DNA of 64,000 nt from positions 25,483-89,482 of the forward strand of contig JBBABB010000002.1 of NCBI GenBank assembly GCA_041657885.1. Reading direction: 5' to 3'. Both the position numbers and the translations under genes were made by a program. Shown here in pieces: positions 9,291 through 63,461 of the stretch. The number at the start of each line of letters is the position of its first letter. Positions within the stretch are counted from its first letter, which is position 1. Origin of the DNA: Minisyncoccota bacterium (GTDB taxonomy: Bacteria > Patescibacteriota > Minisyncoccia > Phycocordibacterales > UBA9973). Under the pieces are notes generated by a model that was given only the letters and a program-made list of their open reading frames with translations, was not told the origin of the DNA and searched no databases.

Positions 9291-9319
9291 TTTCATCATA
9301 AATATTTTTTGAGTGTTTT

Positions 9320-22601: not shown

Positions 22602-22610
22602 CAAATCAAA

Positions 22611-35742: not shown

Positions 35743-36108
35743 ATGGACATGATAAAAATTTACAAAACAAAATTGGAGGAGGAAAAGAAATTATTAGAAG
35801 ATGAGTTAAGTACTCTTGGCCAAATAGATAAAATGGGAGATTGGGAAGCAACACCTGAGGCTGAAATGAATAGCCAAGAAGTTCAAGATGAGGGTGATAT
35901 GGCAGAGCGGGCAGAAGATTATGAGGAACGCTCAATCAAGTTAGATTTACTCGAGTTGAGACTTTCTGATATAAACAAAGCTCTAGAAAATATTGAGAGT
36001 GGTAAATATGGAATTTGTGAAAATTGTAAAAAAGAAATCGGAAAAGATCGACTAGAAGTAAATCCCGCAGCTCGTACTTGTAAAGAGTGTATGGATAAAA
36101 TTGTTTAA
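35743..36108 (+). CDS. DksA/TraR-family C4 zinc-finger protein.
   Basis: C-terminal CENCKKEIGKDRLEVNPAARTCKEC. Confidence 0.75.
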   Translation: MDMIKIYKTKLEEEKKLLEDELSTLGQIDKMGDWEATPEAEMNSQEVQDEGDMAERAEDYEERSIKLDLLELRLSDINKALENIESGKYGICENCKKEIGKDRLEVNPAARTCKECMDKIV

Positions 36109-37749: not shown

Positions 37750-37785
37750 TGTAACACTTGCCAACGGGTGTAGGCATCTGTTACA
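37750..37785. promoter_or_regulatory. 36-bp palindromic site TGTAACACTTGCCAACGGGTGTAGGCATCTGTTACA immediately upstream of the PaaX-like gene.
   Basis: Arms TGTAACA/TGTTACA. A 34/36-identical direct copy lies at 38378-38413. Confidence 0.65.
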
Positions 37786-37793
37786 CTAAACAA

Positions 37794-38357
37794 ATGATGA
37801 AATTCAAAAAAGAGAACCTACAACATGGAGCTCAAACTTTAGGAAATATATTACTGGCGAGCGTCGCTATTGCTGGAATAGCAGGTGTCGCAGTTTTTGC
37901 TCCAAATGCAATGCAAATAATTAAATACGTAATTCCCGAGGATGATATAAAACGTCACTATAAATATCGAATAAATAGTAGTCTAAAAAAACTAATCACT
38001 AATGGATATCTAGTAGAGAAAATTGTTAATAATAAAAAGGTTATTGTGCTTACTAATAAAGGTAAATTACGCTATGAATCTCTTAAAGAACATAAAAATC
38101 AAAAATGGGATGGTAAGTGGAGGGTTGTATCTTTTGATGTTTATGAAAAAAATAGAAAGAAGAGAGATTTACTACGTCAAGAACTTCAAGCATATGGATT
38201 TCAAATGATGCATCAAAGTATGTGGATATATCCTTATCCTTGCGATGAATATATAGCATTATTAAAGTCAAATTTATCCTTTGGAAAAAATGTTCAATAT
38301 ATGTTAGTTGATTATGTAGATATGCACATTGAGCTGAAAAGAATGTTCGATTTATAA
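37794..38357 (+). CDS. PaaX-like transcriptional regulator (wHTH plus C-terminal domain).
   Basis: WDGKWRVVSFDVYEKNRKKRDLLRQELQAYGFQMMHQSMWIYP matches the PaaX W.G.W..V.....E.R..R..LR..L...GF......W..P pattern. The ORF track's 37758 start is a TTG inside the palindrome. ATG 37794 is preferred. Confidence 0.65.
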   Translation: MMKFKKENLQHGAQTLGNILLASVAIAGIAGVAVFAPNAMQIIKYVIPEDDIKRHYKYRINSSLKKLITNGYLVEKIVNNKKVIVLTNKGKLRYESLKEHKNQKWDGKWRVVSFDVYEKNRKKRDLLRQELQAYGFQMMHQSMWIYPYPCDEYIALLKSNLSFGKNVQYMLVDYVDMHIELKRMFDL

Positions 38358-38377
38358 ATAAATCAAACTTAAACAAG

Positions 38378-38413
38378 TGTAACACTTGTCAACGGGTGTA
38401 GGTATCTGTTACA
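38378..38413. promoter_or_regulatory. Second copy of the 36-bp palindrome, TGTAACACTTGTCAACGGGTGTAGGTATCTGTTACA, downstream of the PaaX-like gene.
   Basis: Direct repeat of 37750-37785. Confidence 0.65.
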
Positions 38414-38443
38414 AATACAAAAAAATAGATTACTTGGTAATCT

Positions 38444-38565
38444 TAAATTTCTTTGTCGAGACGTTTTGCTTCGGCCCAAGAGAGCTCGTAGATTTTTTTC
38501 ATTGCATCGGCAATTTCGGCACTTTCTATAATTATTCCGAGCTTTTCTCGCCATGAGGCAATCAT
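38444..38565 (-). pseudogene. Remnant of a TrmB-family regulator paralog (C-terminal 40 aa only).
   Basis: MIASWREKLGIIIESAEIADAMKKIYELSWAEAKRLDKEI matches the C-terminus of the 26432-27226 product (MIASWKEKLGIIIESQEISDAMKKIFELAWIGAKQFKKEK). Confidence 0.7.
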
Positions 38566-38584
38566 AATTTTATTGTCGTAAACA

Positions 38585-38620
38585 AAGAGGCTCGGCGACT
38601 AAAGTCGCCGAGCCTCTTTT
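38585..38620. terminator. Bidirectional hairpin terminator.
   Basis: AAAGAGGCTCGGCGAC-taaa-GTCGCCGAGCCTCTTT. Confidence 0.7.
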
Positions 38621-38641
38621 AATTATTAATTCTTAATTATT

Positions 38642-39766
38642 TTACACCGGTGGTCTCATCTTTGACCCATTTGCATTTTCAACTTCAAAGTCCAAATGTG
38701 GACCTGTTGAACGTCCAGTATTTCCTATTTTACCAATTTGTTTTCCTTGAGAAACTTGTTGTCCAACAAATACAGATACTTTAGATAAGTGAGAATATCT
38801 TGTCCTTGTTCCATTTAGGTGCTCAATAACAATCTGATTTCCATAACGCCCACCGCAACTCCTTACTCCTTCTTTACATCCACTAACTACACTAACAACT
38901 ATACCAGAAGCCGCTGCAACTACAGGAGTTCCTCTTTTATTGCCTATATCTATACCATAATGGAATCCTCCTTTTCTTGAACCATAAGGTGAAGTAATTG
39001 GACCAGGAGCAGGTCGAATATAATATCCTGATTGAACTTTTGTATTAGATACTATTTTACCAGAGCCAGAAGATGTTGGCTGGGAAACAACTGATTTAAT
39101 AATACCGTTTGGTACGAAAATTATATCCCCCAGTTTAAGAGTATCCCCATTTGAAATACCATTAAAAATCGTTATGTCTTCTATTTCTGCCTCATATTTA
39201 TCGGCAATTTTACTTATAGTATCACCACTTTTAACAATATGTTTGACCCCGGTAACAGGCAAAATGTTAAGTTTTTGTCCAACCGAGATAGTCTGTCCAG
39301 AAATGTTGTTTTCCCAACGGATAGTGTTTGTAGAGATATTAAACTTTTCTGCTATTTCAGAAAGGGTGTCTTTTTCTTTTACTGTATAAACATTTATTTG
39401 GTCAGACAATGGACTTTTTTCTAAATTGAGTAAACTCACATCTATTTCTGATAATCCATCATTATAAATAAAAGAGTCATTCTGCACAATTACGATATCT
39501 TCCGATTTATTTGTATTTTTGAGGTCTGGGTTAATAGAAGTTTCAAGAAGAGGAATGGTTTGTGAGTTGTGAACAACATTATTACTACTCTCTGGACTGT
39601 CTGTTGTTTCGTTGGCCTGTACTTGCTCTCCTCCAAAAACCGTTGTAGTTACATCAGAAAAAAAGCCAGCATTCACCATTAAAGGAGTGCCAGCAATAAG
39701 CGAAATAGCTATAAAAAAAGAAGAAACCTTAACGATATAAGGCTTGGGAAATAAGGATATTTTCAT
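38642..39766 (-). CDS. LysM-domain M23-family peptidoglycan metallopeptidase.
   Basis: Two LysM repeats (YTVKEKDTLSEIAEKFNIS.., HIVKSGDTISKIADKY) and C-terminal M23 motifs (FHYGIDIG ... HLSK ... GNTGRSTGPHLDFEV). N-terminal signal/TM present. Confidence 0.9.
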   Translation of the reverse strand: MKISLFPKPYIVKVSSFFIAISLIAGTPLMVNAGFFSDVTTTVFGGEQVQANETTDSPESSNNVVHNSQTIPLLETSINPDLKNTNKSEDIVIVQNDSFIYNDGLSEIDVSLLNLEKSPLSDQINVYTVKEKDTLSEIAEKFNISTNTIRWENNISGQTISVGQKLNILPVTGVKHIVKSGDTISKIADKYEAEIEDITIFNGISNGDTLKLGDIIFVPNGIIKSVVSQPTSSGSGKIVSNTKVQSGYYIRPAPGPITSPYGSRKGGFHYGIDIGNKRGTPVVAAASGIVVSVVSGCKEGVRSCGGRYGNQIVIEHLNGTRTRYSHLSKVSVFVGQQVSQGKQIGKIGNTGRSTGPHLDFEVENANGSKMRPPV

Positions 39767-40136
39767 CTTACAGCCATTTTGACTAGCAGAATCGCCTAAA
39801 GAATCTTGTGTTTTTAGTTGAATAAGCCTAATTAAATAACTACACTATTTTACCCCTTGGTTAGGAACCACAGTACGACCGCATAAGCGAGGGCTGTAAT
39901 TGTTAAGTAAAACAAGCATAATTGTTACAATCGTCTCAGGAAAGCTTGAAAAATATAGCTTTTTTCGGATTCTCTGCACCATAAGACCCATACCAGAGGC
40001 CCTATCTCTATAAAGGGTAGCCCATATGGAAATGATAGTCAACCGAGTAATCCACAGGTAATCCACATGGGTGTTATTAGAACATATAATCAAAATTAGA
40101 CAAGAAATTAAATCCGGTGGTATAATATACTTGTAT

Positions 40137-42077
40137 ATGAAAAATCTAGACAAAAATAGAATTGAATTGGCACAAATAGAAGATGCTCCTGATAAAATAC
40201 CATGGAAATTAACTGAAATAGAAAAAGGAATGGCAGAGAAAGTTCCTTTTGAAGAAATAAATAAGGATGAAGAATCTTGGACAGGTCAAGATGAAAAAAT
40301 ATTAAATGAGTTGCTGATTTTTATTAAAAATATAGAAATCCATATAGCAGAAATAGACACTGAGTTGAATATAATAAAAAAAGAAATAAAAAGTCCTATA
40401 ACTGTAAATAACGAAACAAAAGGAGTAAAGGATTATTCAACAGATTTTATAAAAGAGAAAATTTTACCCCTTTTAGAAAAAAATAAAGAAATAGATGAAA
40501 TCATAAGTTTTGAAATAAAAGGAATTGGTAAAGAAATAAGACTAAACATAGTAGTAAAAAGTTATGGCTTTAATATAAAAGTACAAGTAACTTTTGAAAA
40601 CAAAGGGGATGGTGTTGCAGTAAAAGATGATTATATAATTGACGCAAAATGGCCAGTAAAAGGAAAAGCAGAAAAAGAATTAGTACCACAACTTGGTAAA
40701 GTTTCTGAAATGTTAAAAATGTATATAGAAAAAGAAGGGGGTAAAAAAATTGAAAAAATTTGGATTGAAGATGGAAAGTTAAAAGCACTATCTAAAACAA
40801 AAAAAGAACTAGAGAAAGAAAAAACGGAACAGCTTGAAATCCTTGCGAGAGTAAAAAAGGGAGTAGAAGATTTGTTGGCTAAAAAAAATAAAGCGGTAGG
40901 TACAAATAAAAATATTATGAAAGGAAAAGACCCAGAAGTGGATTCTGTGGTTGATGAAGACGAGGTGAGAGTAGATAACCCTAAAGATGGAAAAGAAAAA
41001 AAACAAGCCCGAGATCGTAAACTTTTAAAAGCAGTTGTTGGTGGAGCAATCATAATGGCTAGTGGATATTTTGCATATTACTTTGTGGGCAATAAAAGAT
41101 TACCTGTAAATAAAGATCATAATACTGCCGTTGGTCAAGATCCAGAAAATAAATTAATTAAAACTTATTCATATCCTACTGGTAAATCTGAAGAAATAAT
41201 AGATACTGGAACAAAAGAGACCAAAGATGTAACCGTCAAAAATAGTGAAAATATTAACCAAGTAGAAGAAATTGAAAAACCAAAAGTTGTAGTTGATACA
41301 ACAACTCTTAACAATCAAAATATATCATCAGAAAAATTTGTAGAAATTAATAATGACTCAATAAAAACACCCGATGTTATTATTTCTCATTATTCAGGTG
41401 GAGTATTGGGTAGACTTGAACAGGCGTATGATCAAAATATAAAACATCTTTTCCCTAATAACATAAATAATCATGCGTGGGATAATGTAAAAGGTAAAAG
41501 TCCAAATGATTTGTTTAAACTTGAGAAAGAAGGAGGTCTAAACGAAATGTACAAACCATTAGCTGTTTATCTTCACAAGCTTGAAATAACCACGGGTCTT
41601 TCTCCAGAAAATGAAACAACATCTGAATACATGAATCGTGGATTAGAAAAAGCCTATGAAATGGGAAGATTAAAAAATGTAGAATTATTGGATGCCCCGA
41701 AAATCGAAGTTGAGCAAATTCCAAGCAATAATATAACCCCCGAAGAAATTTTCAAAATAACGGGTGTTAAAGAATTAAATGTTGGTGAATTAAAAGACTG
41801 GGAAAATATAATTAAGGGGTATGAAGCTGATGGGTATAAGGATATTTATGGACAACTACCTTTTAAAACGAAAATGGACGGGGTTGAGTTAAAAGAATTG
41901 CACGCGGTTGCAATAGAAAATAATGCCATGACACAAGAAGCAGTAAAAGTCGCATCAAATGCTAAAATGGATAATGTTATGGAATTAATAAACGGCAAAG
42001 AATTTTATGATTATTATCTTGAAAAAATAACACCAGATAAGAGGATTAAACTAATACATATCAAGTTTTATAAATAG
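40137..42077 (+). CDS. Hypothetical large K/E-rich protein with one central TM (about 646 aa from ATG 40137).
   Basis: Long ORF. TATAAT at 40121-40126 lies just upstream of the ATG. TM segment LLKAVVGGAIIMASGYFAYYFV. Confidence 0.6.
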   Translation: MKNLDKNRIELAQIEDAPDKIPWKLTEIEKGMAEKVPFEEINKDEESWTGQDEKILNELLIFIKNIEIHIAEIDTELNIIKKEIKSPITVNNETKGVKDYSTDFIKEKILPLLEKNKEIDEIISFEIKGIGKEIRLNIVVKSYGFNIKVQVTFENKGDGVAVKDDYIIDAKWPVKGKAEKELVPQLGKVSEMLKMYIEKEGGKKIEKIWIEDGKLKALSKTKKELEKEKTEQLEILARVKKGVEDLLAKKNKAVGTNKNIMKGKDPEVDSVVDEDEVRVDNPKDGKEKKQARDRKLLKAVVGGAIIMASGYFAYYFVGNKRLPVNKDHNTAVGQDPENKLIKTYSYPTGKSEEIIDTGTKETKDVTVKNSENINQVEEIEKPKVVVDTTTLNNQNISSEKFVEINNDSIKTPDVIISHYSGGVLGRLEQAYDQNIKHLFPNNINNHAWDNVKGKSPNDLFKLEKEGGLNEMYKPLAVYLHKLEITTGLSPENETTSEYMNRGLEKAYEMGRLKNVELLDAPKIEVEQIPSNNITPEEIFKITGVKELNVGELKDWENIIKGYEADGYKDIYGQLPFKTKMDGVELKELHAVAIENNAMTQEAVKVASNAKMDNVMELINGKEFYDYYLEKITPDKRIKLIHIKFYK

Positions 42078-42107: not shown

Positions 42108-42416
42108 ATGTTCAATCAAATAAATAAAAATATAGTTGTAATCCTAGGAATTAATACTTTGCCTGTCGAACAACAAAAAGAGGCCATGGAGCGTCTTGGT
42201 GCTATTGTTTATCAAGAGGTAATGTTGCGTGTTCTTGATATTTTAACAGAAGAAGACAAAGATGAATTTGAGAAATTAATTGAGAAAGATCCAAACCCAG
42301 AAATGATGTTTGAGTTTTTATCAAATAAAATATCAAATTTTGAAGAAATAGTAAAAGAAGAAGCAGAAAAGTTAAGAGAAGAAAGTGCAGAAATCATAAG
42401 CGAAATAGGGAAATAA
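42108..42416 (+). CDS. Hypothetical small acidic protein (102 aa).
   Basis: ORF only. Confidence 0.45.
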   Translation: MFNQINKNIVVILGINTLPVEQQKEAMERLGAIVYQEVMLRVLDILTEEDKDEFEKLIEKDPNPEMMFEFLSNKISNFEEIVKEEAEKLREESAEIISEIGK

Positions 42417-42434: not shown

Positions 42435-44456
42435 ATGCGATATCTTGATTCTTTGAATGAAAAACAAAAAGAGGCAGTTCTTTATACGGATGGGCCTCTT
42501 TTGATTGTAGCTGGGGCTGGAGCAGGGAAGACGAAAACATTGACTCACCGAATAATTCACCTTATCCACAAAGGAGTAAACCCGAGCTCAATATTGGCAG
42601 TAACCTTTACAAATAAGGCCGCAAAGGAAATGCGGGATAGGGTTATGGGATTGTTGGAAGATAGGGAGCATGGAGTTAGTGCGCCCGAGCGAAGCGAGGG
42701 CGCCCCATTCGTCTCCACCTTTCACTCACTTGGGGTTCATATTATAAAAGAAAATTCTCATTTGATAGGTTTGAATAAATATTTCACGATTATAGACGAG
42801 AGCGATGCGCTGAGCATCATCAAAAGCATAATGAAAGAACGCGACATAGATACAAAACAACATGAGCCAAGAAAAATAAAATCAATTATTTCAAAGTCAA
42901 AAGGTGACTTTATTACAGTAGATACATTTAGTGCCAATGCAAAAAGTGCTGTGCAAAGTATCGTCGCAATGATTTGGCGAGATTATGAAGCAAGATTGAA
43001 AAAAGAAAAAGCATTGGACTTCGACGATTTACTTCTTGAGACAGTTTTGATTTTAAAAAAATATCCGGAGATAAAACAAAAATATCAAGAGGAGTGGAAA
43101 TATCTTCATATAGATGAGTACCAAGATACGAACGAAGTTCAATATGAAATGACAAAACTTTTAGTCGGAAAAGAAGAAAATATTTGTGTTACGGGAGATT
43201 GCGATCAATGTGTGTATTCATGGCGAGGTGCTAGCATCAAAAACATGTTGCACTTTGAAAAAGATTATCCAAACGCCAAGATAGTAATACTCGAACAAAA
43301 TTACCGCTCAACAAAAAATATTATTGAAGCGGCAAATAGTGTTATTGAGAAAAATGTTTATCGCGTGCCTAAAATTTTATTTACGGAAAATGTGAAAGGG
43401 GAGGAGATTACGATTTGCGAAGCTTATGATGAACAAAGTGAAGCAATATTTGTGGTAAAAAAGATAGACGAATTTTTAAAAGAAAATAATCCCGAAGATA
43501 TCGCGATACTTTATCGTGCAAACTTTCAATCAAGAGTTTTAGAAGAGGCATTACTTGATAAACAAATTCCTTATCAAGTACTTGGAGTAAAATTCTTTGA
43601 ACGAAAAGAAATTAAAGATTTGCTCGCATACATTCGCCTCTCTTACAATAAAGAAAGTTTGTCGGACATAAAAAGAATAATAAATATTCCAACTCGTGGA
43701 ATAGGGAAGACCACAATCGCAAAACTTTTTGCGGGGACTACAAATGATTTACCAAAAGGAATGCAAATAAAAATTGGAAAATTCTATGAGCTTGTTGACG
43801 GCATACGATTGTATATTGACTCTCATAAACCATCTGAATCTGTGAAATACGTGATAGAGAAAAGTGGACTAAAAGAGGAGCTTTCTCACGGCACGAGCGA
43901 CGAACAAGAACGCTTGGAAAATATGATGGAATTGGTAACTTTAGCTATAAAATATGACAATATTCCAGACGGTGAAGGAATGGAAAAACTACTTGAAGAT
44001 GCATCTCTTGCAAGCGACCAAGACACTCTGATGCACCCCATTAAAAACCGCGAGGGATCACAAGGACCCTCTGTTTCTAACGGGACAGGTAAGGGAAATG
44101 GCGTGAAGTTAATGACAGTGCATGCATCGAAAGGTCTTGAGTTTAAATATGTTTTCATCACGGGGCTTGAACAAGATTTATTCCCACATACAAAAGGAAA
44201 TTCAAAAACAAAAGAAGACAACGAGGAAGAGAGAAGATTATTTTACGTGGCCGTCACTCGAGCAAGGGAAAAATTATTTTTATCTTATGCATCACTCCGA
44301 ACAATTTTTGGAATGAAACAAGTGAACAGCCCAAGCGAATTCATTTACGATATTCCCGCACACTTAACAATTTTTGAACAAGCATATTCTTCAAGGGGAC
44401 CTGCCCGCCCTCACAAAGATTCGGGAGCAGGCGGGGAGAAAGTGGTGTATTTATAG
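42435..44456 (+). CDS. pcrA: UvrD/PcrA-family ATP-dependent DNA helicase.
   Basis: Motif I AGAGAGKTKTLTHR, Ia TFTNKAAKEM, II LHIDEYQDTN, plus later motifs. The C-terminus carries a family D insertion (..ARPHKDSGAGGEKVVYL). Confidence 0.92.
   Translation: MRYLDSLNEKQKEAVLYTDGPLLIVAGAGAGKTKTLTHRIIHLIHKGVNPSSILAVTFTNKAAKEMRDRVMGLLEDREHGVSAPERSEGAPFVSTFHSLGVHIIKENSHLIGLNKYFTIIDESDALSIIKSIMKERDIDTKQHEPRKIKSIISKSKGDFITVDTFSANAKSAVQSIVAMIWRDYEARLKKEKALDFDDLLLETVLILKKYPEIKQKYQEEWKYLHIDEYQDTNEVQYEMTKLLVGKEENICVTGDCDQCVYSWRGASIKNMLHFEKDYPNAKIVILEQNYRSTKNIIEAANSVIEKNVYRVPKILFTENVKGEEITICEAYDEQSEAIFVVKKIDEFLKENNPEDIAILYRANFQSRVLEEALLDKQIPYQVLGVKFFERKEIKDLLAYIRLSYNKESLSDIKRIINIPTRGIGKTTIAKLFAGTTNDLPKGMQIKIGKFYELVDGIRLYIDSHKPSESVKYVIEKSGLKEELSHGTSDEQERLENMMELVTLAIKYDNIPDGEGMEKLLEDASLASDQDTLMHPIKNREGSQGPSVSNGTGKGNGVKLMTVHASKGLEFKYVFITGLEQDLFPHTKGNSKTKEDNEEERRLFYVAVTRAREKLFLSYASLRTIFGMKQVNSPSEFIYDIPAHLTIFEQAYSSRGPARPHKDSGAGGEKVVYL
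44398..44441. repeat. Family D GC-rich hairpin element, in-frame at the helicase C-terminus.
   Basis: gaCCTGCCCGCCCTCACaaagATTCGGGAGCAGGCGGGGAgaa, about 90% identical to 16291-16331 in tig. Confidence 0.75.
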
Positions 44457-44457
44457 A

Positions 44458-44568
44458 TTCCCCTCGTTGAGGGGTGCCCGTAGGGTGGGGTGGATTTAAT
44501 TAATTAACCCATCCACCCCGTCCTCTGGTTACAGAGTCCACCCCTCAAGAGGGGAATTAATACAGAAA
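44458..44568. repeat. Family C composite palindrome of about 110 bp, intergenic between the helicase and rsmA.
   Basis: ATTCCCCTCgTTGAGGGGTGCCCGTAGGGTGGGGTGGAT ... ATCCACCCCGTCC ... CACCCCTCAAGAGGGGAAT. A shorter copy lies at 56986-57051. Confidence 0.8.
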
Positions 44569-44589
44569 ATTTGTGTTAATATTATTTGT

Positions 44590-45477
44590 ATGATTCATAA
44601 AGCGAAAAAATCAATGGGGCAGAATTTTCTTAAGTCCAAACCGGCACTCAATATGATGTGCGAGGCAGGAGAGGTAAATAACTCCGATACTATTCTTGAA
44701 ATTGGTCCGGGGAAAGGAGTACTGACAGAAAAACTTTTAGAAAAGGCGGGGAAGGTGATAGCGATTGAAAAAGACCGAGAACTATTTGAATTTTTAAAAG
44801 AAAAATTTGGAGAAGAAATAAAAAATAAAAAATTAATTTTATTAAATGAAGATATATTACAGTTTGAGTTCCCCTCCCCTTTGGGGAGGGCTGGGGAGGG
44901 GTTCCTAATTAAGAACCTCCCCTCATTCCCCTCCAAAGGAGGGGAGGAAATCAATTCTTATAAAATCATCGCCAACATTCCGTATAATATTACCGGCTCA
45001 ATTTTAAAAAAGTTTCTATCTTGCGAGAATCAACCAGAAAGAATGGTTCTCTTAGTGCAAAAAGAAGTCGCGGAAAGAATTGTCACTCGCGATGGCAAAG
45101 AAAGTATTTTGTCACTAAGCGTGAAGGCATACGGGACTCCGAAATACATAATGAAGGTTCATAAGCGATTTTTCTCACCAGCTCCTAAAGTAGATTCGGC
45201 TATTATTGCAATCAATAATATTTCTAGACAGAATTTTCATACAAAAAATGAAGAAAATGTGTTTTTTGGCTTGGTTAAAACAGGTTTTGCTCACAAAAGA
45301 AAAGTTCTTCGTAAAAATCTGGAAACTAAGGAAGTCGGACCCTCCTCGTCGGCGGGCATGCTTCCAAAGATTGATGAGATTTTTGAAAAATTAGGAATTA
45401 ATCCGAATGCTCGCGCCGAGGATATCAAGTTCGAAAAATGGCTTCTGATTTCTCGTCTTTTATCCACAGATATCTAG
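44590..45477 (+). CDS. rsmA: 16S rRNA (adenine1518/1519-N6)-dimethyltransferase RsmA/KsgA, with an in-frame insertion of about 27 aa.
   Basis: MGQNFLKS, EIGPGKGVLT, NIPYNITG. The family B palindrome encodes EFPSPLGRAGEGFLIKNLPSFPSKGGEEI just before the NIPYNI motif. Confidence 0.9.
   Translation: MIHKAKKSMGQNFLKSKPALNMMCEAGEVNNSDTILEIGPGKGVLTEKLLEKAGKVIAIEKDRELFEFLKEKFGEEIKNKKLILLNEDILQFEFPSPLGRAGEGFLIKNLPSFPSKGGEEINSYKIIANIPYNITGSILKKFLSCENQPERMVLLVQKEVAERIVTRDGKESILSLSVKAYGTPKYIMKVHKRFFSPAPKVDSAIIAINNISRQNFHTKNEENVFFGLVKTGFAHKRKVLRKNLETKEVGPSSSAGMLPKIDEIFEKLGINPNARAEDIKFEKWLLISRLLSTDI
44868..44949. repeat. Family B GC-rich palindromic element of about 82 bp, in-frame inside rsmA.
   Basis: TTCCCCTCCCCTTTGGGGAGGGCTGGGGAGGGGTTCCTAATT | AATTAAGAACCTCCCCTCATTCCCCTCCAAAGGAGGGGAGGAA. 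An intergenic reverse-complement copy lies at 56449-56540. Confidence 0.85.
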
Positions 45478-46487: not shown

Positions 46488-49400
46488 ATGAGAAAACAAA
46501 CTATAACAAAAATAATTGGAGGTATGATTATCTTTGTTTTCGTTGTATCTTTTTTCCAATTTGCCCTACCTATACAGGCTACTACTACGACAAATCTGCC
46601 AGACCTTTACTCTAATCCAAACCAAACCAGTGCCAAAAATCCATATAAATTCACTTTGGCTTCCGTATTAAAATCTGGAATACTCCAAAATGTTATTGGT
46701 TGTACAGGTGTTGTAAATAAAGTTGCTACTTGGATGTCAACATTGCTACAATCTCCAGCACAAATAGCTAAAACTTTAAAAGCTAAAAAAGATAAAATCA
46801 AAGAACAATTAACAGCAACGTGTTTAGCTGTTAAAGCTGGAGCTCAAATAGCAGGACAAATTATCCCATCTATTGGAGGTCTTGCTCCCGCAATAGATAC
46901 TGCAATGGCAGGTGTAAAAATTGACGGAGTAGAAGTATGTAAGGCGCAAGCTGAAGTGACCGTCGACAAAATGACTGATGCACAAATTGAAGCAAATGAG
47001 AGAGAAGCGGCAAATACCTTAAAAGACCAATGCTTTGACGGTATCGCTATTATGCTTGCTAAGAATCAACTCACTTCTATGACCCGTAGTGCTATGAACT
47101 GGGTAAATACTGGGTACGGAGGCAATCCGTTCTTTGTCCAGAATGTACAGAATTTTGCAAATAAACTTGAACAAAATGTCGTAGAAACAGGAATAGATAT
47201 ATTACTCACACCAAAAAATCAAAACCCATATGCTAGTGATTTTGTTAAATCGGTTATAGCAAGTAGGGGCATAGGAAAAAGTTTTACTAGTTCTCTTTTT
47301 AATCTTAAATCCGACTTGGGAGCTTTTATAACAGACCCACAATCTTATTATACTGAAGAACATCTCAGTGATGCAGAAAAAACACAAATGGCACTCAGAA
47401 GAGCACAGGGTGCAAATAATGCTTTTGCGAATGATTTCTCTGTTGGTGGTTGGGATGGATGGCTTGCCTTAACCCAAAGAGACCAGAATAACCCTCTTGG
47501 TTTTACTATGCTTGCAAGCCAATATTTAGAAGAAGCCCAAACACAAGCAGTGGCTGAGAAAAAAGACGAGTTATTACAAAATAATGGATTTTTAAGTCAG
47601 AAAAAATGTGTTTTGTGGCAAGTGTATGGGGAAGACCATAAACCAAAATATGAGGAGGGTGGTTTTTCTCCATCAGGATTAGCTAAATCATCTTTTACAC
47701 CAATTACTCAAAAAACTAAACCATCTATATGTTATAAATCTGGTGGTGAATGTTGTGTAGAGTGGGAAGTAGTAACCCCCGGAAGTATCATCAAAGAGCA
47801 AACGGCAAATTATTTGGCTTCTCCACAGCGTCAACTTGAGCTTGTAAAAACAATAAACGATGGAATAAATGCTCTTTTTTCTTATTTAATTTCTGAATTA
47901 GAAAATGCCGGCCTTTCAGGACTTTCAGATTCTGTTGATAATCCAGCAAATTTTGACGATAATACAAACTTTATTAGTTCAGATGGAAATACTCCTTATG
48001 ATAACAATGGCGCTTATGATGGTTTCAATCTAACCCGTGACTTAGGAAATACTTATATACACACCACCCCAATAAAATTAGGAAATTGGCATGCTGATAC
48101 AAATGCAACAGATAGTGATTATGACAAAGATGATAATTACGATAATGGAAAATTATATCAAGGAGAAGCTCCTATAGATATTCCTAGTGGAAAAAGTGCT
48201 GTTGACTCATACTACACAGTAACGATAGCCGGAAAAACAGAACTTTTACTTGATGGTTATAATGGTTGGAATGAGGGAGACAGAGCATTTTGGGATGGAA
48301 GTGAGTGGCAAAATTGGAAGAAAGATGTGAAAGATGAAAGTGGAGTAATTCAAAAAACAAACCCTATAAAGAAAAGGGGAGTAATTCAAATTCAACAAGA
48401 TTATATTGTGGCAGCGACTGAGATACTAAAAGTTTTACCAAGTGTAATGACAAAGCTCGGCGAGCTTGATTATTGTATTCCCGGACCAAATCCAAGTTAT
48501 CTAACAAATTCCACAGATGCTCAGTCCGCATATCAGGATTGGGTTGGGTCGCTTTATGTTGGGCCAATAGATGCAGCAAGACAAGTTTATACAATAGACC
48601 ACCCAGGAGAAAGAACGTATGATAATTTAGCAAATATATTTACTGATAGTCCAAGCGTTTGGAAAACAATAAAAAATTCTATGGACTTTTTGTTAGAGAA
48701 TTTTGATAGTTATAAATATATAACTGGTAATATTTTTAGTGGTAGTAATAAAAAACAAAAAATAGTTGACAAAAAAAGAAACTTAATGGATGTTAACATG
48801 GATTATGCAAACAGTAGTCTCTTCCAAAATTTCTATGAGAACTTTGATAAAATGATGAATAAACTCTACTTCAACAATATGACTAGTATGTATAATGAGT
48901 ATGAGAATAGATCAATAACTTTACCGACAACAAATAGCACAGGGGATAAAAACTTAGGTTACATCCCAATGGCTGAAAGCGGGCTTGACCTGACAAAAAA
49001 TATAATGTACTACGCCGAGGATATAGCAAAAGTAACACAAGAGTATAGCGATGATATCGCCATAGCAAAAGTAAATATCGCCAAACTTGAACCAATTAAA
49101 GCGGAAGTGAGTAAAATTATAAAAGATGCACAAGACCGCCGTGATAAAAGATTGCTTGAGATAGTTAATAAAGAAATGTGTAATGAAAATTATACAAAAT
49201 GTATGCAAGATGGATTTGGTCTTACCGGCCAACAGAAATCAGCAATAGGGAATAGGGGTTCCTATTGTAATATAAACCAAACAACTTGTAATGAGAATGA
49301 GAAACCGGTGACAGATGCACAAGTAGCACAATACAAAGAAAAATATAAAGAATGTCTCGCTGAAGAAAATATGAATTTCTATGATGCAGATACAATAATG

Positions 49401-49652
49401 AATATTGGTGGTGCTGACGCTGAAAGATGCTTCAATGGAATTGATGACGATTTAGATGGATTGATAGATACAAAAGATCCTGATTGTTTTGGAGTAACAC
49501 CTGTTGTTCATTGTGTAAGAAGTGGAATTTCCACCCCATATACAGGAAGAATAAATGCTGGAAGTAAATGTTCCGATATAACAGACAGTCAATCTTGTAG
49601 TTTATATCATGAATATGAGTCTAACTTGGCATGGCAGTGTGAATGGAAATAA
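46488..49652 (+). CDS. Large secreted protein (1054 aa) with a Cys-rich C-terminus that includes a TSP3-like Ca-binding motif.
   Basis: Signal/TM IIGGMIIFVFVVSFFQFALPIQA. CFNGIDDDLDGLIDTKDPDC. Confidence 0.7.
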   Translation: MRKQTITKIIGGMIIFVFVVSFFQFALPIQATTTTNLPDLYSNPNQTSAKNPYKFTLASVLKSGILQNVIGCTGVVNKVATWMSTLLQSPAQIAKTLKAKKDKIKEQLTATCLAVKAGAQIAGQIIPSIGGLAPAIDTAMAGVKIDGVEVCKAQAEVTVDKMTDAQIEANEREAANTLKDQCFDGIAIMLAKNQLTSMTRSAMNWVNTGYGGNPFFVQNVQNFANKLEQNVVETGIDILLTPKNQNPYASDFVKSVIASRGIGKSFTSSLFNLKSDLGAFITDPQSYYTEEHLSDAEKTQMALRRAQGANNAFANDFSVGGWDGWLALTQRDQNNPLGFTMLASQYLEEAQTQAVAEKKDELLQNNGFLSQKKCVLWQVYGEDHKPKYEEGGFSPSGLAKSSFTPITQKTKPSICYKSGGECCVEWEVVTPGSIIKEQTANYLASPQRQLELVKTINDGINALFSYLISELENAGLSGLSDSVDNPANFDDNTNFISSDGNTPYDNNGAYDGFNLTRDLGNTYIHTTPIKLGNWHADTNATDSDYDKDDNYDNGKLYQGEAPIDIPSGKSAVDSYYTVTIAGKTELLLDGYNGWNEGDRAFWDGSEWQNWKKDVKDESGVIQKTNPIKKRGVIQIQQDYIVAATEILKVLPSVMTKLGELDYCIPGPNPSYLTNSTDAQSAYQDWVGSLYVGPIDAARQVYTIDHPGERTYDNLANIFTDSPSVWKTIKNSMDFLLENFDSYKYITGNIFSGSNKKQKIVDKKRNLMDVNMDYANSSLFQNFYENFDKMMNKLYFNNMTSMYNEYENRSITLPTTNSTGDKNLGYIPMAESGLDLTKNIMYYAEDIAKVTQEYSDDIAIAKVNIAKLEPIKAEVSKIIKDAQDRRDKRLLEIVNKEMCNENYTKCMQDGFGLTGQQKSAIGNRGSYCNINQTTCNENEKPVTDAQVAQYKEKYKECLAEENMNFYDADTIMNIGGADAERCFNGIDDDLDGLIDTKDPDCFGVTPVVHCVRSGISTPYTGRINAGSKCSDITDSQSCSLYHEYESNLAWQCEWK

Positions 49653-49669
49653 TAAATTATTAAAAATAT

Positions 49670-52600
49670 ATGGAAAAAAACCCTAAAAAAAGTAAAGCTC
49701 TCATCATAACAATAATTTTAATTGTCTTGCTTTTAATTGCTGGGTATTTTATTTTTAAGAATAAAGATAGTATTTTCAAAATTAAAACTTCTACTAATAC
49801 TTTTACTTCACTTCCTGCATCAGAGAATAAACCGGGATTTCTCGCTAAAATATTCTCCCCACTTCTTCCATCAAGTAATTCAAAAAATCTAGATACGGGT
49901 GAGAACATCAAGACTACATACGCAGAAGCGGGAGAAAACATTAAGAAAGGGGACATCGTTTATAAAGTAGGTACAAATAAAAATAATTTGCCTATAGTGA
50001 GAAAAACTGGACTTCAGAATCAAAATAAATTCGGTACTGCCCTTGAAGATATAAATATGGGAAGCTTTGGCAATATTGCTGTTGATAGTAGTTTCTGGGG
50101 AAGTATAAAAGATTTTTTTAATAACACAACAGGTAATATTGGAAACTGGGTAGGTGGAATATTCAGAGGTAATGGTGGAACTGGCCCTAGTAGTAATACG
50201 TGCACAAATGGTGCAACTAATCCGACTTTGTGTACTACTATTGGTGGTAATTGTATAAATAATGCAACTAATCCACCCCTCTGTACGACTATGGATAACG
50301 ATACAAACATTTTCCCCACAGTCACAGTTATAGCAACCCCAGCATCAATTGCAAAAGGTGAATCATCCACTATTAGTTGGGAATCAACAAATGCAGATGC
50401 TTGTAATGCTGGCACTGGTAATGGGACGGGGAAGACGGGGTCATTCTCAACTGGAATACTTCAATCAAGTAGGTCATATACAGTGACTTGTACTGGAGTA
50501 AATGGAACAGGTAGTGGAAATATCTTAGTGGCTGTTGGTGGAGGAGGAAATGTTTGTCCTACCGGCTGGACGGGGACTTACCCTAACTGTACTGATCCCA
50601 ATTCTAATAGTTGCCCTGCCGGTTGGACAGGGACTTTTCCTAACTGTACCAATACTGGAAACTGTCCTGTCGGTTGGACCGGAACTTATCCTGTCTGTAC
50701 TGACCCCAATTCCAATGTTTGCCCTGCGGGTTGGATGGGAACCTACCCTGACTGTACTGACCCCAATTCCAATAGTTGTCCTGTCGGGTGGACGGGGACT
50801 TTTCCTAACTGTACCAATATTGGGGGCTGCCCTCTTGGCTGGACGGGGACTTACCCTGACTGTATTGCCCCTAATTTTATATTTCCCTCTGTCACTGTTT
50901 GGGCAACACCACCAATAGTTGAATACGGTGAAAAATCGGAGATTGGTTGGGAATCAAAAAATACTGAATACTGCGTGGAGGGTGCTGTGGGTAATGCATC
51001 GCCCGATGGTAGTGTAAATAATAAAAAAGGTATAAAAGGAAAACTTACGACGGGAGCATTGCTTAGTAGTAAATCATTTACAATAACTTGTTATGACAAG
51101 AATGGAGGAGGAGTGAGTGGAAGCGTTGTTGTTTTCGTCAACCTAGCTGGAGTCCCAGATCTTCGAGCCACTGACCCGACACCAACGACAGTTCTCGTTG
51201 GAGTAAACACAATGTTCTATTCAGATATAATAAACCAAGGAACTGCATCGACTGGAGAAACTACTTTCTACAACATAATGCAATGGGCAAAACCCGCTTT
51301 TACAACGACTACGACTGGTGCAACTGGTGCGACTAGTCCTGACTCAAGTGACTCTACTGGCGGTTCTTCTTCCTCTGAAACAAACACCTTTATGGATGAA
51401 TCAAAATTAATCCCTATTGATTTGCCAAAAGTCAGGATGAAAACTATTCCAGCGGGAGAATCTCAACCTTTTACAATTGTCTATAATTTTAAAGACATAG
51501 GTACATACTATATAAGAGTTTGTGCCGATAAACAAAGTCAGACAGATGCTGGAAATATTAATGAAGGAACAAATGAAAATAACAATTGCAGCAATTGGGT
51601 AGCAATAGCAGTCACAAATTCACTTCCAACACCATGTCCTCAGCTAACAGATGCTACTGGTAAATGTGTTTCTGTAGATGAATGTCTGGCACTGAATAAA
51701 ATCGTTTCAGGGGATCAATGTGTTGACGACCCATCGGTTTGTCCTCCCCCTAAAATAAAAGATACTACTGGTAAATGTATAGATGCATCTGAAGTTATAC
51801 CACCAAATATTTGTAAAGATATAGAACAAAACCCACTAACTTTCACCCCTGAAGAGAAAGCCAGATTGGCAGTATTGCTCCGTAAGTTTTATCTAATATC
51901 CTCAACCCTTAGAACAAGTGACGATATCTCCACAATATATAGCGACATTGACCAACAGAAAATTTTTATGGGACAAATTGATGGATTAACAAAGCAGTGT
52001 TATTTGCAGATAAATGATACAGATGGATACAAAAATTTCTGTTCAAGAAATCCGAGTTTGTGTAAAACCACAGATATACCTACTTCTGGTATACCTACTC
52101 CTGGCTATAAAGACAATTATTATACACAAGGACAAAACTTAACATTAAGACGCGGAAATCCTTGGTATCAAAAAACGTCGGGTGGAACATTCCCTTACAC
52201 AGGTAATAATGTTTTTGATAAAAATGGTGTTTCGATTAAAGACCCAGAAGGAAAACCAATCACTGCTGGATACATGGATTACAACTGGTTAGAAGGTAAT
52301 TATATAGATAACGGAAATGGTAATTATTCTCCATATTTAAGCCCAAGCCAAAAAGCAAGTGGGGCGTCTTCAACTGCTTCATCAGATGGTCCTGGCTGTA
52401 AGGTTGTATCTGGTTATTATTATGGAACATTAACAAGAGATGTAATTTTAACAAAAGATACCCCTGATATAGGCATACTCATACTAATGATGCCATATCA
52501 AGGAATAATAAATGCTGCAATAGAAGCACTTACTCCGACTAAGGTATGGAGTGCAGGAGAAAGTTGTGATAAATTTAATTTAGACATTAGGGATGATCAA

Positions 52601-52753
52601 AATAATCTAATAACCAATAATTGTTATTACAACAATACAAAAATATTTGGAAATTGGAATGCCCCTCCAAGTCAAACTTTACTTGAAAGTGGCTGTAAGT
52701 GGGTAGATGGAGTGGATATGATAAACACGGAAAGGATTTTGAATATTTGGTAG
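49670..52753 (+). CDS. Large secreted protein (1027 aa) with Ig-like modules, a tandem CPxGWTGTYPxCTDPNSN repeat array and a CARDB-like module.
   Basis: Signal anchor ALIITIILIVLLLIAGYFIF. Six tandem Cys-rich units of 17-19 aa. YIRVCADKQSQTDAGNINEGTNENNNCSNW. Confidence 0.8.
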   Translation: MEKNPKKSKALIITIILIVLLLIAGYFIFKNKDSIFKIKTSTNTFTSLPASENKPGFLAKIFSPLLPSSNSKNLDTGENIKTTYAEAGENIKKGDIVYKVGTNKNNLPIVRKTGLQNQNKFGTALEDINMGSFGNIAVDSSFWGSIKDFFNNTTGNIGNWVGGIFRGNGGTGPSSNTCTNGATNPTLCTTIGGNCINNATNPPLCTTMDNDTNIFPTVTVIATPASIAKGESSTISWESTNADACNAGTGNGTGKTGSFSTGILQSSRSYTVTCTGVNGTGSGNILVAVGGGGNVCPTGWTGTYPNCTDPNSNSCPAGWTGTFPNCTNTGNCPVGWTGTYPVCTDPNSNVCPAGWMGTYPDCTDPNSNSCPVGWTGTFPNCTNIGGCPLGWTGTYPDCIAPNFIFPSVTVWATPPIVEYGEKSEIGWESKNTEYCVEGAVGNASPDGSVNNKKGIKGKLTTGALLSSKSFTITCYDKNGGGVSGSVVVFVNLAGVPDLRATDPTPTTVLVGVNTMFYSDIINQGTASTGETTFYNIMQWAKPAFTTTTTGATGATSPDSSDSTGGSSSSETNTFMDESKLIPIDLPKVRMKTIPAGESQPFTIVYNFKDIGTYYIRVCADKQSQTDAGNINEGTNENNNCSNWVAIAVTNSLPTPCPQLTDATGKCVSVDECLALNKIVSGDQCVDDPSVCPPPKIKDTTGKCIDASEVIPPNICKDIEQNPLTFTPEEKARLAVLLRKFYLISSTLRTSDDISTIYSDIDQQKIFMGQIDGLTKQCYLQINDTDGYKNFCSRNPSLCKTTDIPTSGIPTPGYKDNYYTQGQNLTLRRGNPWYQKTSGGTFPYTGNNVFDKNGVSIKDPEGKPITAGYMDYNWLEGNYIDNGNGNYSPYLSPSQKASGASSTASSDGPGCKVVSGYYYGTLTRDVILTKDTPDIGILILMMPYQGIINAAIEALTPTKVWSAGESCDKFNLDIRDDQNNLITNNCYYNNTKIFGNWNAPPSQTLLESGCKWVDGVDMINTERILNIW
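50540..50880 (+). repeat. Tandem DNA repeats with a 51-57 nt period, encoding CP.GWTGT(Y/F)P.CT(D/N)PNSN units.
   Basis: The six units are visible in the translation. Confidence 0.8.
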
Positions 52754-52863
52754 GAGGGGGAATAATTAAGAATTAATAATTAAGAATTTAAAGAGGAAAA
52801 GTAGTAAGGGGGATTAAGTAGTAGGTAGCATGTAGCAAGTAGTGAGAGAAATAATAAATACAA

Positions 52864-56449: not shown

Positions 56450-56540
56450 TTCCTCCCCTCCTTACCAAGGAGGGGAATGAGGGGAGGTTCTTAATTAATT
56501 AGGAACCCCTCCCCAGCCCTCCCCAAAGGGAAGGGAATCC
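56449..56540. repeat. Family B GC-rich palindromic element, intergenic copy (reverse complement of the rsmA copy).
   Basis: TTCCTCCCCTCCTTaccAAGGAGGGGAATGAGGGGAGGTTCTTAATTAATTAGGAACCCCTCCCCAGCCCTCCCCAAAGGGaAGGGAA. Confidence 0.85.
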
Positions 56541-56565: not shown

Positions 56566-56976
56566 ATGCAATTCAAAGTCCCACAATTTATTGATATCGA
56601 GGACAAATTATTTGGCCCTTTTACTTTCTTTCAGTTTGTATACCTTGTGGGAGGAGCTGGAATAGTGTTTGTCATATATAAAATTTTCCCTTTGTGGATT
56701 GGTATTTTTCTTATTATTCCAGTTGCTATATTATCTGTCCTGCTTGTCTTTTATAGAATAAACGGAAAACCTTTTATTTATTACCTTCAGGCTGGAGCTA
56801 GTTATCTCGTTTCAAGTAAATTGTATATATGGAAGCAGAGATTAATAAATCCAAATAGCAAGAAAAAAGAGGAGGAAGCACAAGCTCCACAAATGGTTTC
56901 GGTCATTCCGATGACATCAAATGACAAATTGAGAGACATATCTTGGAGTTTGGATGTGGAAGGGAAGGAGAAGTAA
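56566..56976 (+). CDS. Small two-TM membrane protein (136 aa), candidate VirB3/PrgI-like T4SS component.
   Basis: Two adjacent hydrophobic helices. The position just upstream of the VirB4-like ORFs is inferred from gene context. Confidence 0.45.
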   Translation: MQFKVPQFIDIEDKLFGPFTFFQFVYLVGGAGIVFVIYKIFPLWIGIFLIIPVAILSVLLVFYRINGKPFIYYLQAGASYLVSSKLYIWKQRLINPNSKKKEEEAQAPQMVSVIPMTSNDKLRDISWSLDVEGKEK

Positions 56977-56985
56977 TAATGTGTG

Positions 56986-57051
56986 AATTCCCCTCTTGAG
57001 GGGTGCCTGAAAGGCGGGGTGGATGAATTTGAGGGGAATTAAAATTCTTTC
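56986..57051. repeat. Family C element, shortened copy (AATTCCCCTCTTGAGGGGTGCCTGAAAGGCGGGGTGGAT...GAGGGGAATT).
   Basis: The left arm matches 44458-44497. Outer inverted ends are retained. Confidence 0.75.
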
Positions 57052-59570: not shown

Positions 59571-59571
59571 A

Positions 59572-59666
59572 TACACCCCCTCTGCTTTTAGCATCTCCCC
59601 CTTCGCAGGGGGCGAGGAATTCTTCCTCCCTTGCGAAGGGGAGGTGTCCAAAGGACGGAGGGGTGA
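59572..59666. repeat. Family A GC-rich element, full two-armed palindromic copy of about 95 bp.
   Basis: ACACCCCCTCTGCTTTTAGCATCTCCCCCTTCGCAGGGGGCGAGG-aattc-TTCCTCCCTTGCGAAGGGGAGGTGTCCAAAGGACGGAGGGGTG. Confidence 0.8.
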
Positions 59667-59730
59667 ATCAAATTATAGGTTGTTAGAGAAGCAGGATTAT
59701 TATATAATATATAAAGTGAAATTTACAAAA

Positions 59731-61981: not shown

Positions 61982-61982
61982 C

Positions 61983-63458: not shown

Positions 63459-63461
63459 TTG

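Follow-up and report, generated by a model that had tools for sequence, protein, structure and literature searches.

A GC-rich palindrome lies between the gene of a UvrD-type helicase and rsmA in the window, which is the whole 64-kb stretch of DNA analysed in this work. The question raised by this locus is whether the palindrome was built as a terminator of the helicase gene or is a copy of a dispersed repeat. The palindrome, here named element C, was most likely not made for termination and is better read as selfish repeat DNA. It is also probable, at roughly 60%, that element C is a gene-less (MITE-like or REPIN-like) member of a widespread family that is built around DUF559 nucleases.

Setting and architecture of element C

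The G+C content of the 64-kb window is 35.6%. The genes assigned by Pfam include a housekeeping set typical of CPR bacteria, with NusA, H+-pyrophosphatase, trigger factor, ClpP, RNase Y, HU, CCA-adding enzyme, a XerC/D-like recombinase, and PNPase. The Pfam scan covered 26 of the 45 ORFs of at least 90 aa and returned housekeeping families only, with no DUF559, no recognised transposase, and no RAYT among those 26. The 19 ORFs outside the scan include those at 1-11965, 35743-36108, 37758-40153, 42108-42416, 46488-55476, and 60713-63932. A search of the DUF559 profile against the six-frame translation of the entire window gave no match.

The features of the window are shown in Table 1. An earlier reading of this DNA from its letters (the sequence-only reading) had named a helicase gene, rsmA, and a VirB3-like gene as neighbours. 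All three names are correct, and the products are a helicase of the UvrD type, RsmA/KsgA, and a VirB3-like protein related to PrgI. The T4SS-like block also includes a VirB4/TraG-like ATPase, and its TraC-like protein is 100% identical to WC908_02380 of a 'Candidatus Paceibacterota bacterium' MAG. An oriT-like role, which the nearby T4SS-like genes might suggest, was rejected because the first copy of element C and most copies elsewhere lack such a context.

Table 1. Position, strand, and composition of the repeat features and of the genes around them in the window.
Feature	Position	Strand	Description
UvrD-type helicase	42435-44456		stop codon TAG at 44454-44456
Left module of C	44457-44495	+	head hairpin CCCCTC (44460-65) / GAGGGG (44469-74)
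AT-rich doublet centre of C	44496-44510		TTAATTAATTAA + CCC
Right module of C	44511-44557	-	tail ATCCACCCC, private hairpin CTCTG-GTTA-CAGAG, head CCACCCCTCAAGAGGGGAAT
RsmA/KsgA	44590-45477		
Family B doublet 1	44869-44949	+	81 nt (27 codons), in frame within rsmA
Family B doublet 2	56450-56537	-	intergenic, inverted relative to the first B copy, centre TAATTAATTAA
PrgI-like (VirB3-like) protein	56566-56976		T4SS-like block
Second C copy	56987-57039	+	complete sense module (56987-57024), GAATTT, terminal 9 nt GAGGGGAAT
TraC-like protein	57079-57732		T4SS-like block
Weak module cousins	59570-59669		two modules head to head around GAATTC

Element C extends from 44457 (ATTCCCCTC) to 44557 (GAGGGGAAT) and is 101 nt long, and its first base lies directly 3' of the helicase stop codon TAG. 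The sequence-only reading had placed it at 44458-44568; the palindrome itself stands, whereas those ends do not, and positions 44558-44568 are plain flank. The arm pairs that had been quoted are correct, namely the outer arms 44457-44476 and 44539-44557 and the inner arms 44483-44495 and 44511-44523. The palindrome is continued by its flanks, with many A residues 5' of the element and many T residues 3' of it.

The predicted RNA fold of element C has a free energy of -61.5 kcal/mol, compared with -34.3 +/- 3.7 kcal/mol for dinucleotide shuffles (z = -7.3), and none of the 200 shuffles folded as well. The fold of the single-stranded DNA reaches -34 kcal/mol with z = -8 on either strand. The predicted shape is cloverleaf-like, with a 19-bp outer stem around three arms.

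Element C consists of two inverted modules of about 40-47 nt that are joined tail to tail, and it is not one long hairpin. Each module starts with a head, ATTCCCCTC(N)TTGAGGGGTG, which forms the hairpin CCCCTC/GAGGGG. The head is followed by a second hairpin of free sequence (hairpin 2, private to the module), then by (A/G)C, and finally by a tail, GGGGTGGA(T). The head hairpin written out is ATTCCCCTC-TT-GAGGGG, with TG before the variable hairpin, and the tail of a complete module is GGGGTGGAT. The joint between both modules is TTAATTAATTAACCC, i.e. (TTAA)3CCC. The left module has the private hairpin CCC-GTA-GGG (44477-85) and the G-rich tail GGGGTGGAT (44487-95), and it forms two local hairpins in single-stranded DNA. 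The private hairpins of the left and right modules are not mutually complementary.

The covariance model of the module (R1) identified exactly three strong modules at two sites over the 64 kb. These are the right module of element C (match at 44510-44560 on the minus strand, 58.4 bits, E = 3e-18), the module of the second copy (56984-57025, 51 bits, E = 1.5e-15), and the left module of element C (44454-44496, 36.2 bits, E = 4e-10). Only the first two of these modules were recovered when the 21-nt head was searched in the window with up to three mismatches (56987-57007 on the plus strand and 44537-44557 on the minus strand, against 0.01 matches expected); the left head at 44457 has an additional G and was therefore missed by this ungapped search.

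The second copy is a truncated one, as had been described: its outer ends are kept, including both 9-nt termini, and most of one arm is gone. The PrgI-like gene ends 10 nt before it. Folded alone, it is no better than chance (z = -0.65).

One alternative is that element C is a structured RNA element with a host function, such as a 3'-end stabiliser, a terminator or insulator, or a cis-regulatory element, that evolved or has been maintained in place. The very stable fold is in line with this alternative, and so is the position of both window copies, which are intergenic and lie 0-10 nt 3' of the stop codons of co-directional genes. However, neither copy was called as a terminator over its full length in the terminator scan, and element C ends with GAGGGGAAUUAAUACAG, which has no U-tract. 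In Rfam 15, only tRNAs of the window reach the gathering score, and the matches at 44300-45000 with E up to 10 are far-sub-threshold hairpins of the miRNA type. Element C is also a symmetric doublet, which argues against a dedicated RNA element. Element C is not built like an intrinsic terminator, and the earlier description of it as more elaborate than a terminator holds. A structure of -61 kcal/mol at the 3' end of the helicase transcript may nevertheless hinder exonucleases or shield rsmA as a side effect. The promoter scan showed a weak -35/-10 pair whose first base is the last base of element C.

Spread and conservation of the modules

The sequence-only reading had proposed that element C belongs to a repeat family. 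The 19-base head of the module was scanned by exact match in one genome per species, and at least 120 stretches from more than 50 assemblies contain it, where roughly 9 matches would be expected by chance (uniform-composition arithmetic). The family is thus confirmed, and element C is not a unique sequence. A GGGGTGG-type tail lies within 6-52 nt of the head in 135 of the 146 head matches listed, which come from 120 loci and include the window copies. The bases between head and tail are nearly always a hairpin, and both the hairpin and the tail were absent from the search pattern. The R1 model gave 160 matches in 100 loci, many of them as adjacent plus and minus pairs.

The record titles of the matches cover Paceibacterota, Nomurabacteria, Parcubacteria, Saccharibacteria, Gracilibacteria, and Peribacteria among the CPR. 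They also cover Bacteroidota, with the isolates Pedobacter mendelii CCM 8685 and Parasediminibacterium sp. JCM 36343 and a complete Flavobacterium genome. The other titles are those of closed Kapabacteria chromosomes, Ignavibacteria, termite-gut Bacillota, Nitrospirota, Desulfobulbaceae, Sulfurovum, Simkania, Limisphaerales, and Bdellovibrionales. The number of phyla may be inflated, as some MAG labels are open to doubt, for example 'Hyphomicrobiales' and 'Thermotogaceae' for sequences with 25-40% GC. Contamination is an unlikely source of this spread because the private hairpins are genome-specific and a single assembly may have several copies, up to about ten. Phages were also considered as a reservoir and were rejected, as 2.9 million viral contigs yielded one module match.

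Element C was then compared with the orthologous loci of relatives. A locus from an independent metagenome (L121, 89% RsmA identity) has element C at the same site with one substitution. Four loci with 70-76% RsmA identity (L122, L124, L125, and L127) retain the synteny of UvrD and RsmA, and element C is absent from them. One of these (L127) keeps both flanks (GTGTATTTATAA ... TTTTTATGTTAATATTATTTATATGATTCA), and a palindrome of about 105 nt with no relationship to element C lies between them. The second copy is absent from the same spacer in L209, L211, and L213, whose TraC-like proteins are 88-95% identical and whose spacers are AT-rich. No precise empty site and no readable target-site duplication were found at the RsmA and TraC-like orthologous loci, where the spacers have diverged or are filled by other palindromes. 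The presence of element C is lineage-specific: it is found in the lineage of the window and is absent at the more distant orthologous loci examined.

These findings also bear on whether the palindrome arose by chance or from assembly. The source is a metagenome-assembled genome, and chimeric assembly can make palindromes. However, the same site is occupied in the independent metagenome, hundreds of related copies are present in independent assemblies that include isolates and closed chromosomes, and the fold departs from that of shuffles by the z-score given above. An accidental or artefactual palindrome has practically no probability left and is refuted by the copies in more than 50 assemblies and by L121.

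The structure of the module is under selection. Six of the seven pairs of hairpin 2 changed on both sides in a gapless alignment of 21 distinct modules. The covariation score of this alignment is 0.253, compared with 0.074 for shuffles (none of 500 reached the score) and at most 0.072 for slid controls. All seven pairs vary on both sides among 140 distinct model-aligned modules, and the score is 0.294 compared with 0.077; 93.5% of the cells in that alignment are paired, compared with 77% in shuffles. This second alignment leans toward the model. The G.T pairs of hairpin 2 outnumber its A.C pairs by 23 to 3, which indicates that folding takes place in the G-rich strand, either in RNA or in single-stranded DNA. 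A G.A juxtaposition is common at the base of the hairpin.

Covariation and a G.U bias of this kind are compatible with a structured RNA, and some hairpin-rich sequence was found in every orthologous helicase-rsmA spacer examined. Against such a host function, the orientation of singlet modules relative to neighbouring genes is only weakly biased (52 vs 34), and 30 of 173 modules lie within long ORFs. Identical modules are found at DUF559 gene ends and, over many phyla, in surroundings that have nothing in common, and close relatives lack the element at both sites. Taken with the architecture of the doublet, a host-serving RNA element maintained in place is very improbable.

DUF559 genes between inverted modules

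All ORFs of at least 90 aa in the 120 loci listed (about 800 kb) were clustered, and the only recurrent small family, found at three loci, is DUF559 (PF04480) by Pfam, with E down to 5e-36. At one locus (L043), the DUF559 ORF lies exactly between two inverted modules. A scan of metagenomes with the DUF559 alignment gave 80 loci. All 17 of the closest DUF559 loci inspected have inverted modules of C-type architecture on both sides. Flank-to-flank inverted repeats exceed the 95th percentile of shifted controls at 45 of the 65 testable metagenome loci, where the repeat scores reach 62 and the control maximum is 11. Most of these 45 loci visibly have a C-run hairpin and a G-run tail, and their contigs range from 32 to 65% G+C. 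The inverted repeat around the DUF559 gene is about 50 bp at one locus (L133). At another (L141), the repeats abut the start and stop codons, GGGGTGGTTTAAA[ATG..DUF559..TAG]TTTAAACCACCCC.

The nearest DUF559 relatives are mostly from CPR bacteria. Cultured replicons with module-like grammar at a DUF559 gene are pAQ6 of Picosynechococcus PCC 7002 and Pseudanabaena ABRG5-3. A module-type DUF559 gene is also wedged between sufB and sufC in Sphingomonas parapaucimobilis.

The modules form the ends of the gene itself. The DUF559 ORF begins at an antisense module at three Paceibacterota loci (L219, L220, and L221), and this module translates into ..STP..HPSRGE.. at the first two. The stop codon of the ORF is the TGA in the loop of the sense head hairpin (TTC CCC TCT TGA), which gives the ends KFPS* in L219 and L220 and LFPS* in L221. 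The right module of element C is identical at 45 of 47 positions to the 5' module of the DUF559 gene of L220, with the private stem fully conserved. The left module of element C and the second copy align with the 3' modules of all three loci. A module-encoded N-terminal peptide, mostly HPSRGE, is present in 89 of the best 120 DUF559 cluster representatives, ends of the FPS* type are present in 78, and 107 have at least one module-encoded terminus. One Paceibacterota contig of 813 kb has both the DUF559 unit L219 and separate modules (L097 and L105). Similarity among DUF559 proteins also correlates with similarity of their flanks (Mantel p = 0.001).

The DUF559 core is about 110 aa and is Vsr-like with a PD-(D/E)xK fold. 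Its profile matches PDB 3HRL with E = 5e-26 and the homing endonuclease I-Bth0305I (3R3P) with E = 4e-5. Characterised relatives of such PD-(D/E)xK nucleases act in mismatch repair. To our knowledge, no transposition activity is on record for a PD-(D/E)xK nuclease of about 110 aa. A DUF559 protein of Caulobacter has been reported to elicit the SOS response once a cytosine methylase is removed, and accidental double-strand breaks were suggested by the authors (PMC12907096). At least some DUF559 proteins thus seem to act on DNA in living cells.

The DUF559 ORF always lies on the dyad of the palindrome, and this is true for both module polarities. The gene-bearing units L043, L129, L130, L133, L136, and L141 are heads-out, and those of L070, L134, and L219-L221 are heads-in. 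Element C has the heads-out, tails-in layout, with (TTAA)3CCC in place of the gene; its centre is the dyad position that the DUF559 gene occupies in the ORF-bearing relatives. This constant position, whichever way the modules point, would suit a dimeric nuclease whose gene interrupts its own palindromic site.

How element C came to its site can be proposed from these comparisons. The doublet would have arrived by insertion. It may be a MITE-like or REPIN-like derivative of a nuclease-bearing unit or an unoccupied landing site for one. Copying would be driven by the DUF559 nuclease, with the folded G-rich strand or the dyad of the palindrome as its probable substrate, and the route may be cut-and-repair, as in homing-like gene conversion between modules, or some form of transposition. 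Several findings count against a nuclease-driven family. The window has no DUF559 gene, and no recognised transposase was seen among its 26 scanned ORFs. Of the 14 inverted module pairs with wide spacing that were listed for the first 120 loci, only one had a DUF559 ORF. ORF-bearing units of both polarities are unexpected under a simple transposon model with terminal inverted repeats. The spacers of the gene-less, widely spaced module pairs also gave no detected DUF559 remnant.

The large excess of gene-less modules over those that bear an ORF, the lack of remnants in their spacers, the constant place of the ORF on the dyad in both polarities, and the relationship of DUF559 to I-Bth0305I all suit a different relation between gene and repeat. 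DUF559 might be a lodger, a gene resembling that of a homing endonuclease at the dyad of pre-existing doublets, and the modules would be spread by other means such as a transposase, host recombination or repair, or replication slippage. Element C would then be an unoccupied homing site. However, no other mobilising candidate recurs near the modules in the loci surveyed, DUF559 clades and module types co-vary as is expected of a cognate pair, and the start region and stop codon of the ORF are built into the modules. We consider it unlikely that DUF559 merely occupies repeats that something else spreads.

The favoured reading remains that element C belongs to a family built around DUF559 nucleases, and a wider proposal can be made tentatively. 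The modules together with DUF559 could be an undescribed class of minimal selfish elements in which the nuclease would recognise the arms and spread both gene-bearing and gene-less copies through folded single strands or cruciforms, including the many in-frame insertions in essential CPR genes, with variants in cyanobacteria, Bacteroidota, and Alphaproteobacteria. This wider proposal is somewhat less likely than not. Neither such modules nor a link between them and DUF559 were found described in the literature covered, which comprised Patescibacteria repeats, REPIN/RAYT, DUF559, Vsr-like mobile elements, palindromic elements inserted in frame, and homing endonucleases associated with palindromic repeats.

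Known repeat systems and companion families in the window

The known systems closest to the link between DUF559 and the modules are REP/REPIN-RAYT, MITEs, and the Rickettsia palindromic elements, RPEs (PMC3733652, PMC10969869).

The modules are similar to the REP and REPIN sequences of E. coli and Pseudomonas, which are short GC-rich imperfect palindromes that occur as singlets and inverted doublets in many copies per genome. Both are found mostly just downstream of genes, and both have a small nuclease-type gene between inverted repeats. However, the gene flanked by the modules encodes a DUF559/Vsr-like PD-(D/E)xK nuclease and not a Y1 HUH transposase. The module also differs in having two hairpins, one conserved and one covarying, with a G-run tail and no consistent GTAG tag. 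Modules are nearly the same in sequence across phyla, and they share bases with the start region and the stop codon of the flanked gene.

These comparisons allow another origin to be weighed, namely that element C is a REP or REPIN that was moved on single-stranded DNA hairpins by a RAYT (Y1 HUH transposase) encoded elsewhere in the genome. Its singlets and inverted doublets would be explained, the strand-specific folding and frequent C-GNA-G triloops suit single-stranded DNA hairpins, and the GTGG that often precedes hairpin 2 recalls the GT[AG]G tag (PMC3733652). However, only about one row in two has a G directly after GTG, with C, T, or A in the others, and REPs are not usually so similar between phyla. 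A RAYT gene is normally found between copies of its own REP, and at the modules that place is taken by DUF559, the only small ORF family to recur near them in the 120 loci. Mobilisation by a RAYT is thus highly unlikely.

Element C also resembles MITEs such as Correia/NEMIS, ERIC, RUP, and Nezha. It has terminal inverted repeats (its outer arms), no coding capacity, and dispersed copies. The truncated variant in the window keeps both termini, and longer relatives carry a gene, as in MITEs. The difference is that the gene-bearing relatives (L043, L129, L133, L141, and L219-L221) encode a DUF559 nuclease and no recognised transposase, and that such units exist in both module polarities.

The Rickettsia elements, like those of the window, are palindromes of about 100 bp, and in both cases the genome is small, reduced, and rich in A+T. 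Similarity extends to the sister families of element C, which are found in frame in essential genes (27 additional codons in rsmA, and two sites in the helicase gene), whereas element C itself is intergenic at both sites. Unlike the modules, RPEs are restricted to Rickettsia, and no nuclease gene is known to accompany them (PMC10969869).

The homing endonuclease I-Bth0305I is a Vsr-like (EDxHD) enzyme and shares with DUF559 the arrangement of a small selfish nuclease gene in the middle of a DNA site, in addition to the profile match given above. However, I-Bth0305I resides in a group I intron and has a unique gene target, whereas the DUF559 genes described here are free-standing at the dyad of a dispersed palindrome. 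Yeast mitochondrial GC clusters and the BIMEs of E. coli are GC-rich palindromic clusters in AT-rich DNA that sometimes lie inside genes, and they are analogies only, in different hosts. BIME-like mosaic arrays of different hairpin units occur at three CPR loci (L024, L103, and L119) with no sequence relationship.

The message for the window alone is modest: a selfish repeat lies between two housekeeping genes, and no dedicated regulatory device needs to be assumed. Under the wider proposal made above, DUF559 would be the missing 'transposase' of a REP-like repeat superfamily. If the link between modules and DUF559 is true, a testable function would be available for DUF559, a large family whose role is unassigned, and for REP-like repeats outside Proteobacteria. 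The link would also explain the GC-rich palindromes of tiny CPR genomes and the peptide insertions in rsmA and in uvrD-like helicases. The module would have to be flagged as a sequence that breaks assemblies and misleads gene callers, as many 'DUF559' ORFs have module-encoded ends. A small structure-specific nuclease of practical use might also be obtained.

The co-occurrence of element C with a second family (family B), as claimed by the sequence-only reading, is confirmed. The two family B doublets lie 311 nt and 449 nt from the first and second C copies, respectively. Random placement would give such double proximity in about 5 of 10,000 cases (about 5e-4). This double proximity fits a shared insertion preference or hot spots. 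Family B has a grammar like that of C, with C-run/G-run head hairpins CCCTCCCC/GGGGAGGG, G-run tails, an inverted doublet, and the centre TAATTAA, and both families have the terminal motif GAGGGGAA. Judged by these shared motifs, family B is a sister family of C.

The insertion of the first B doublet in rsmA is displayed by the protein alignment, in which RsmA is 268 aa in insert-free orthologues and 295 aa in the window. Other RsmA orthologues have different inserts at the same hotspot. The second B doublet is not present in the orthologous spacer of L209, which is 22 nt long.

The weak cousins of the module match R1 with 14.8 and 12.1 bits (E = 0.025 and 0.24). They belong to another repeat family of the window (D20, I4, and I5), of which more copies lie at 1289-1336 and 24069-24126. 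The helicase gene has two more in-frame GC-rich inserts, and rsmA differs from that of L121 by an indel of 21 nt.

In-frame inserts in rsmA and the helicase gene

RsmA gains 27 residues (PSPLGRAGEGFLIKNLPSFPSKGGEE) from a family B palindrome, a sister doublet of element C, and the Paceibacteria orthologues without any insert are 268 aa in length. This in-frame palindrome within rsmA resembles the Rickettsia palindromic elements. Other RsmA orthologues have different inserts (PLLRGGVGRGELIKNLPS..; FFKFSSGPRMREDEEPDHS..) at a hotspot shared with the family B copy. The near-identical genomes of the window and L121, a contig that also carries element C, differ in rsmA by the precise presence or absence of 7 codons, where the window exhibits GGAAGTCGGA[CCCTCCTCGTCGGCGGGCATG]CTTCC and L121 exhibits the bare palindrome GGAAGTCCGACTTCC.

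Both GC-rich inserts of the UvrD-like helicase are lineage-specific. The insert near the C-terminus is SRGPARPHKDSGAGG, where orthologues have ENS/ENG, and the further in-frame insert is PIKNREGSQGPSVSNGTG. The trigger-factor ORF also contains the C-terminal palindrome of the helicase (CCTGCCCGCCCTC..GGGAGCAGGCGGGG).

Palindromes of the helicase-rsmA slot and doublet centres

The slot palindrome of L127, a relative with 76% RsmA identity, consists of arms GCAGGATTATTAAAATTAT / ATAATTTCAATAATCCTGC and an inner hairpin CCCAGAGTACTGGG. It differs from element C, which indicates that the slot is reused by unrelated palindromes. The centres of the C and B doublets are (TTAA)n, with a difference of exactly one TTAA unit between the two members of family B.

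Positions of the features in the window and in other loci
Feature	Sequence	Positions	Remark
Family B palindrome in rsmA	window	44869-44949	81 nt, in frame
rsmA difference from L121	window	45340-45360	21 nt
In-frame helicase inserts (n=2)	window	44400-44437; about 44052-44105	GC-rich
Second copy of 44400-44437 palindrome	window	near 16290-16330	in trigger-factor ORF (15761-16903)
Palindrome in helicase-rsmA slot	L127	178-273	about 105 nt
(TTAA)n centres	window	44496-44507; 44906-44912; 56493-56503	
DUF559 unit and modules in much longer ORF	L129; L130; L131	307-2142; 84-1871; 157-3321	
DUF559 unit between sufB and sufC	L217, Sphingomonas parapaucimobilis NZ_CP155753.1	112589-112999	
tRNA genes (n=2)	window	22531-22605; 23498-23572	mutually inverted
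UPF0102 gene	window	22801-23217	
AAAAAGTAGGTGTGGGGG(CAAGC) repeat	window	1207-1288; 7080-7130; 7206-7243; 7305-7397; 7470-7497; 7798-7825; 12120-12157; 20540-20577; 20634-20675	
GAA(C/T)TCTTCCTCCC..GGGGAGGTGTCCAAAGGACGGAGGGGT repeat	window	1289-1336; 24069-24126; 59589-59669	

Modules and DUF559 units in other loci

Among the listed loci with the module head (L001-L120), 11 singlet modules fall within a long ORF, and all 11 are antisense to it. The DUF559 units of the metagenome loci L129-L131 could be in-frame insertions or domain fusions, and apparent restriction-modification subunit sequence adjoins them. Conserved operons are also interrupted by DUF559 units (L217; L221-L230). In a CPR lineage represented by 24 contigs, the unit separates pyrH (AA_kinase) from map (Peptidase_M24) and lies downstream of adk.

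Other repeats of the window

The UPF0102 gene (YraN-like, predicted PD-(D/E)xK) is bracketed by the inverted tRNA genes, which are 77% complementary over 75 nt. The dispersed repeat with core AAAAAGTAGGTGTGGGGG(CAAGC) occurs at least 10 times; both orientations are represented, and some copies form inverted pairs. The GAA(C/T) family shares the head-hairpin, small-hairpin and G-tail grammar of the module, and its copy at 59570-59669 is a GAATTC-centred head-to-head doublet.
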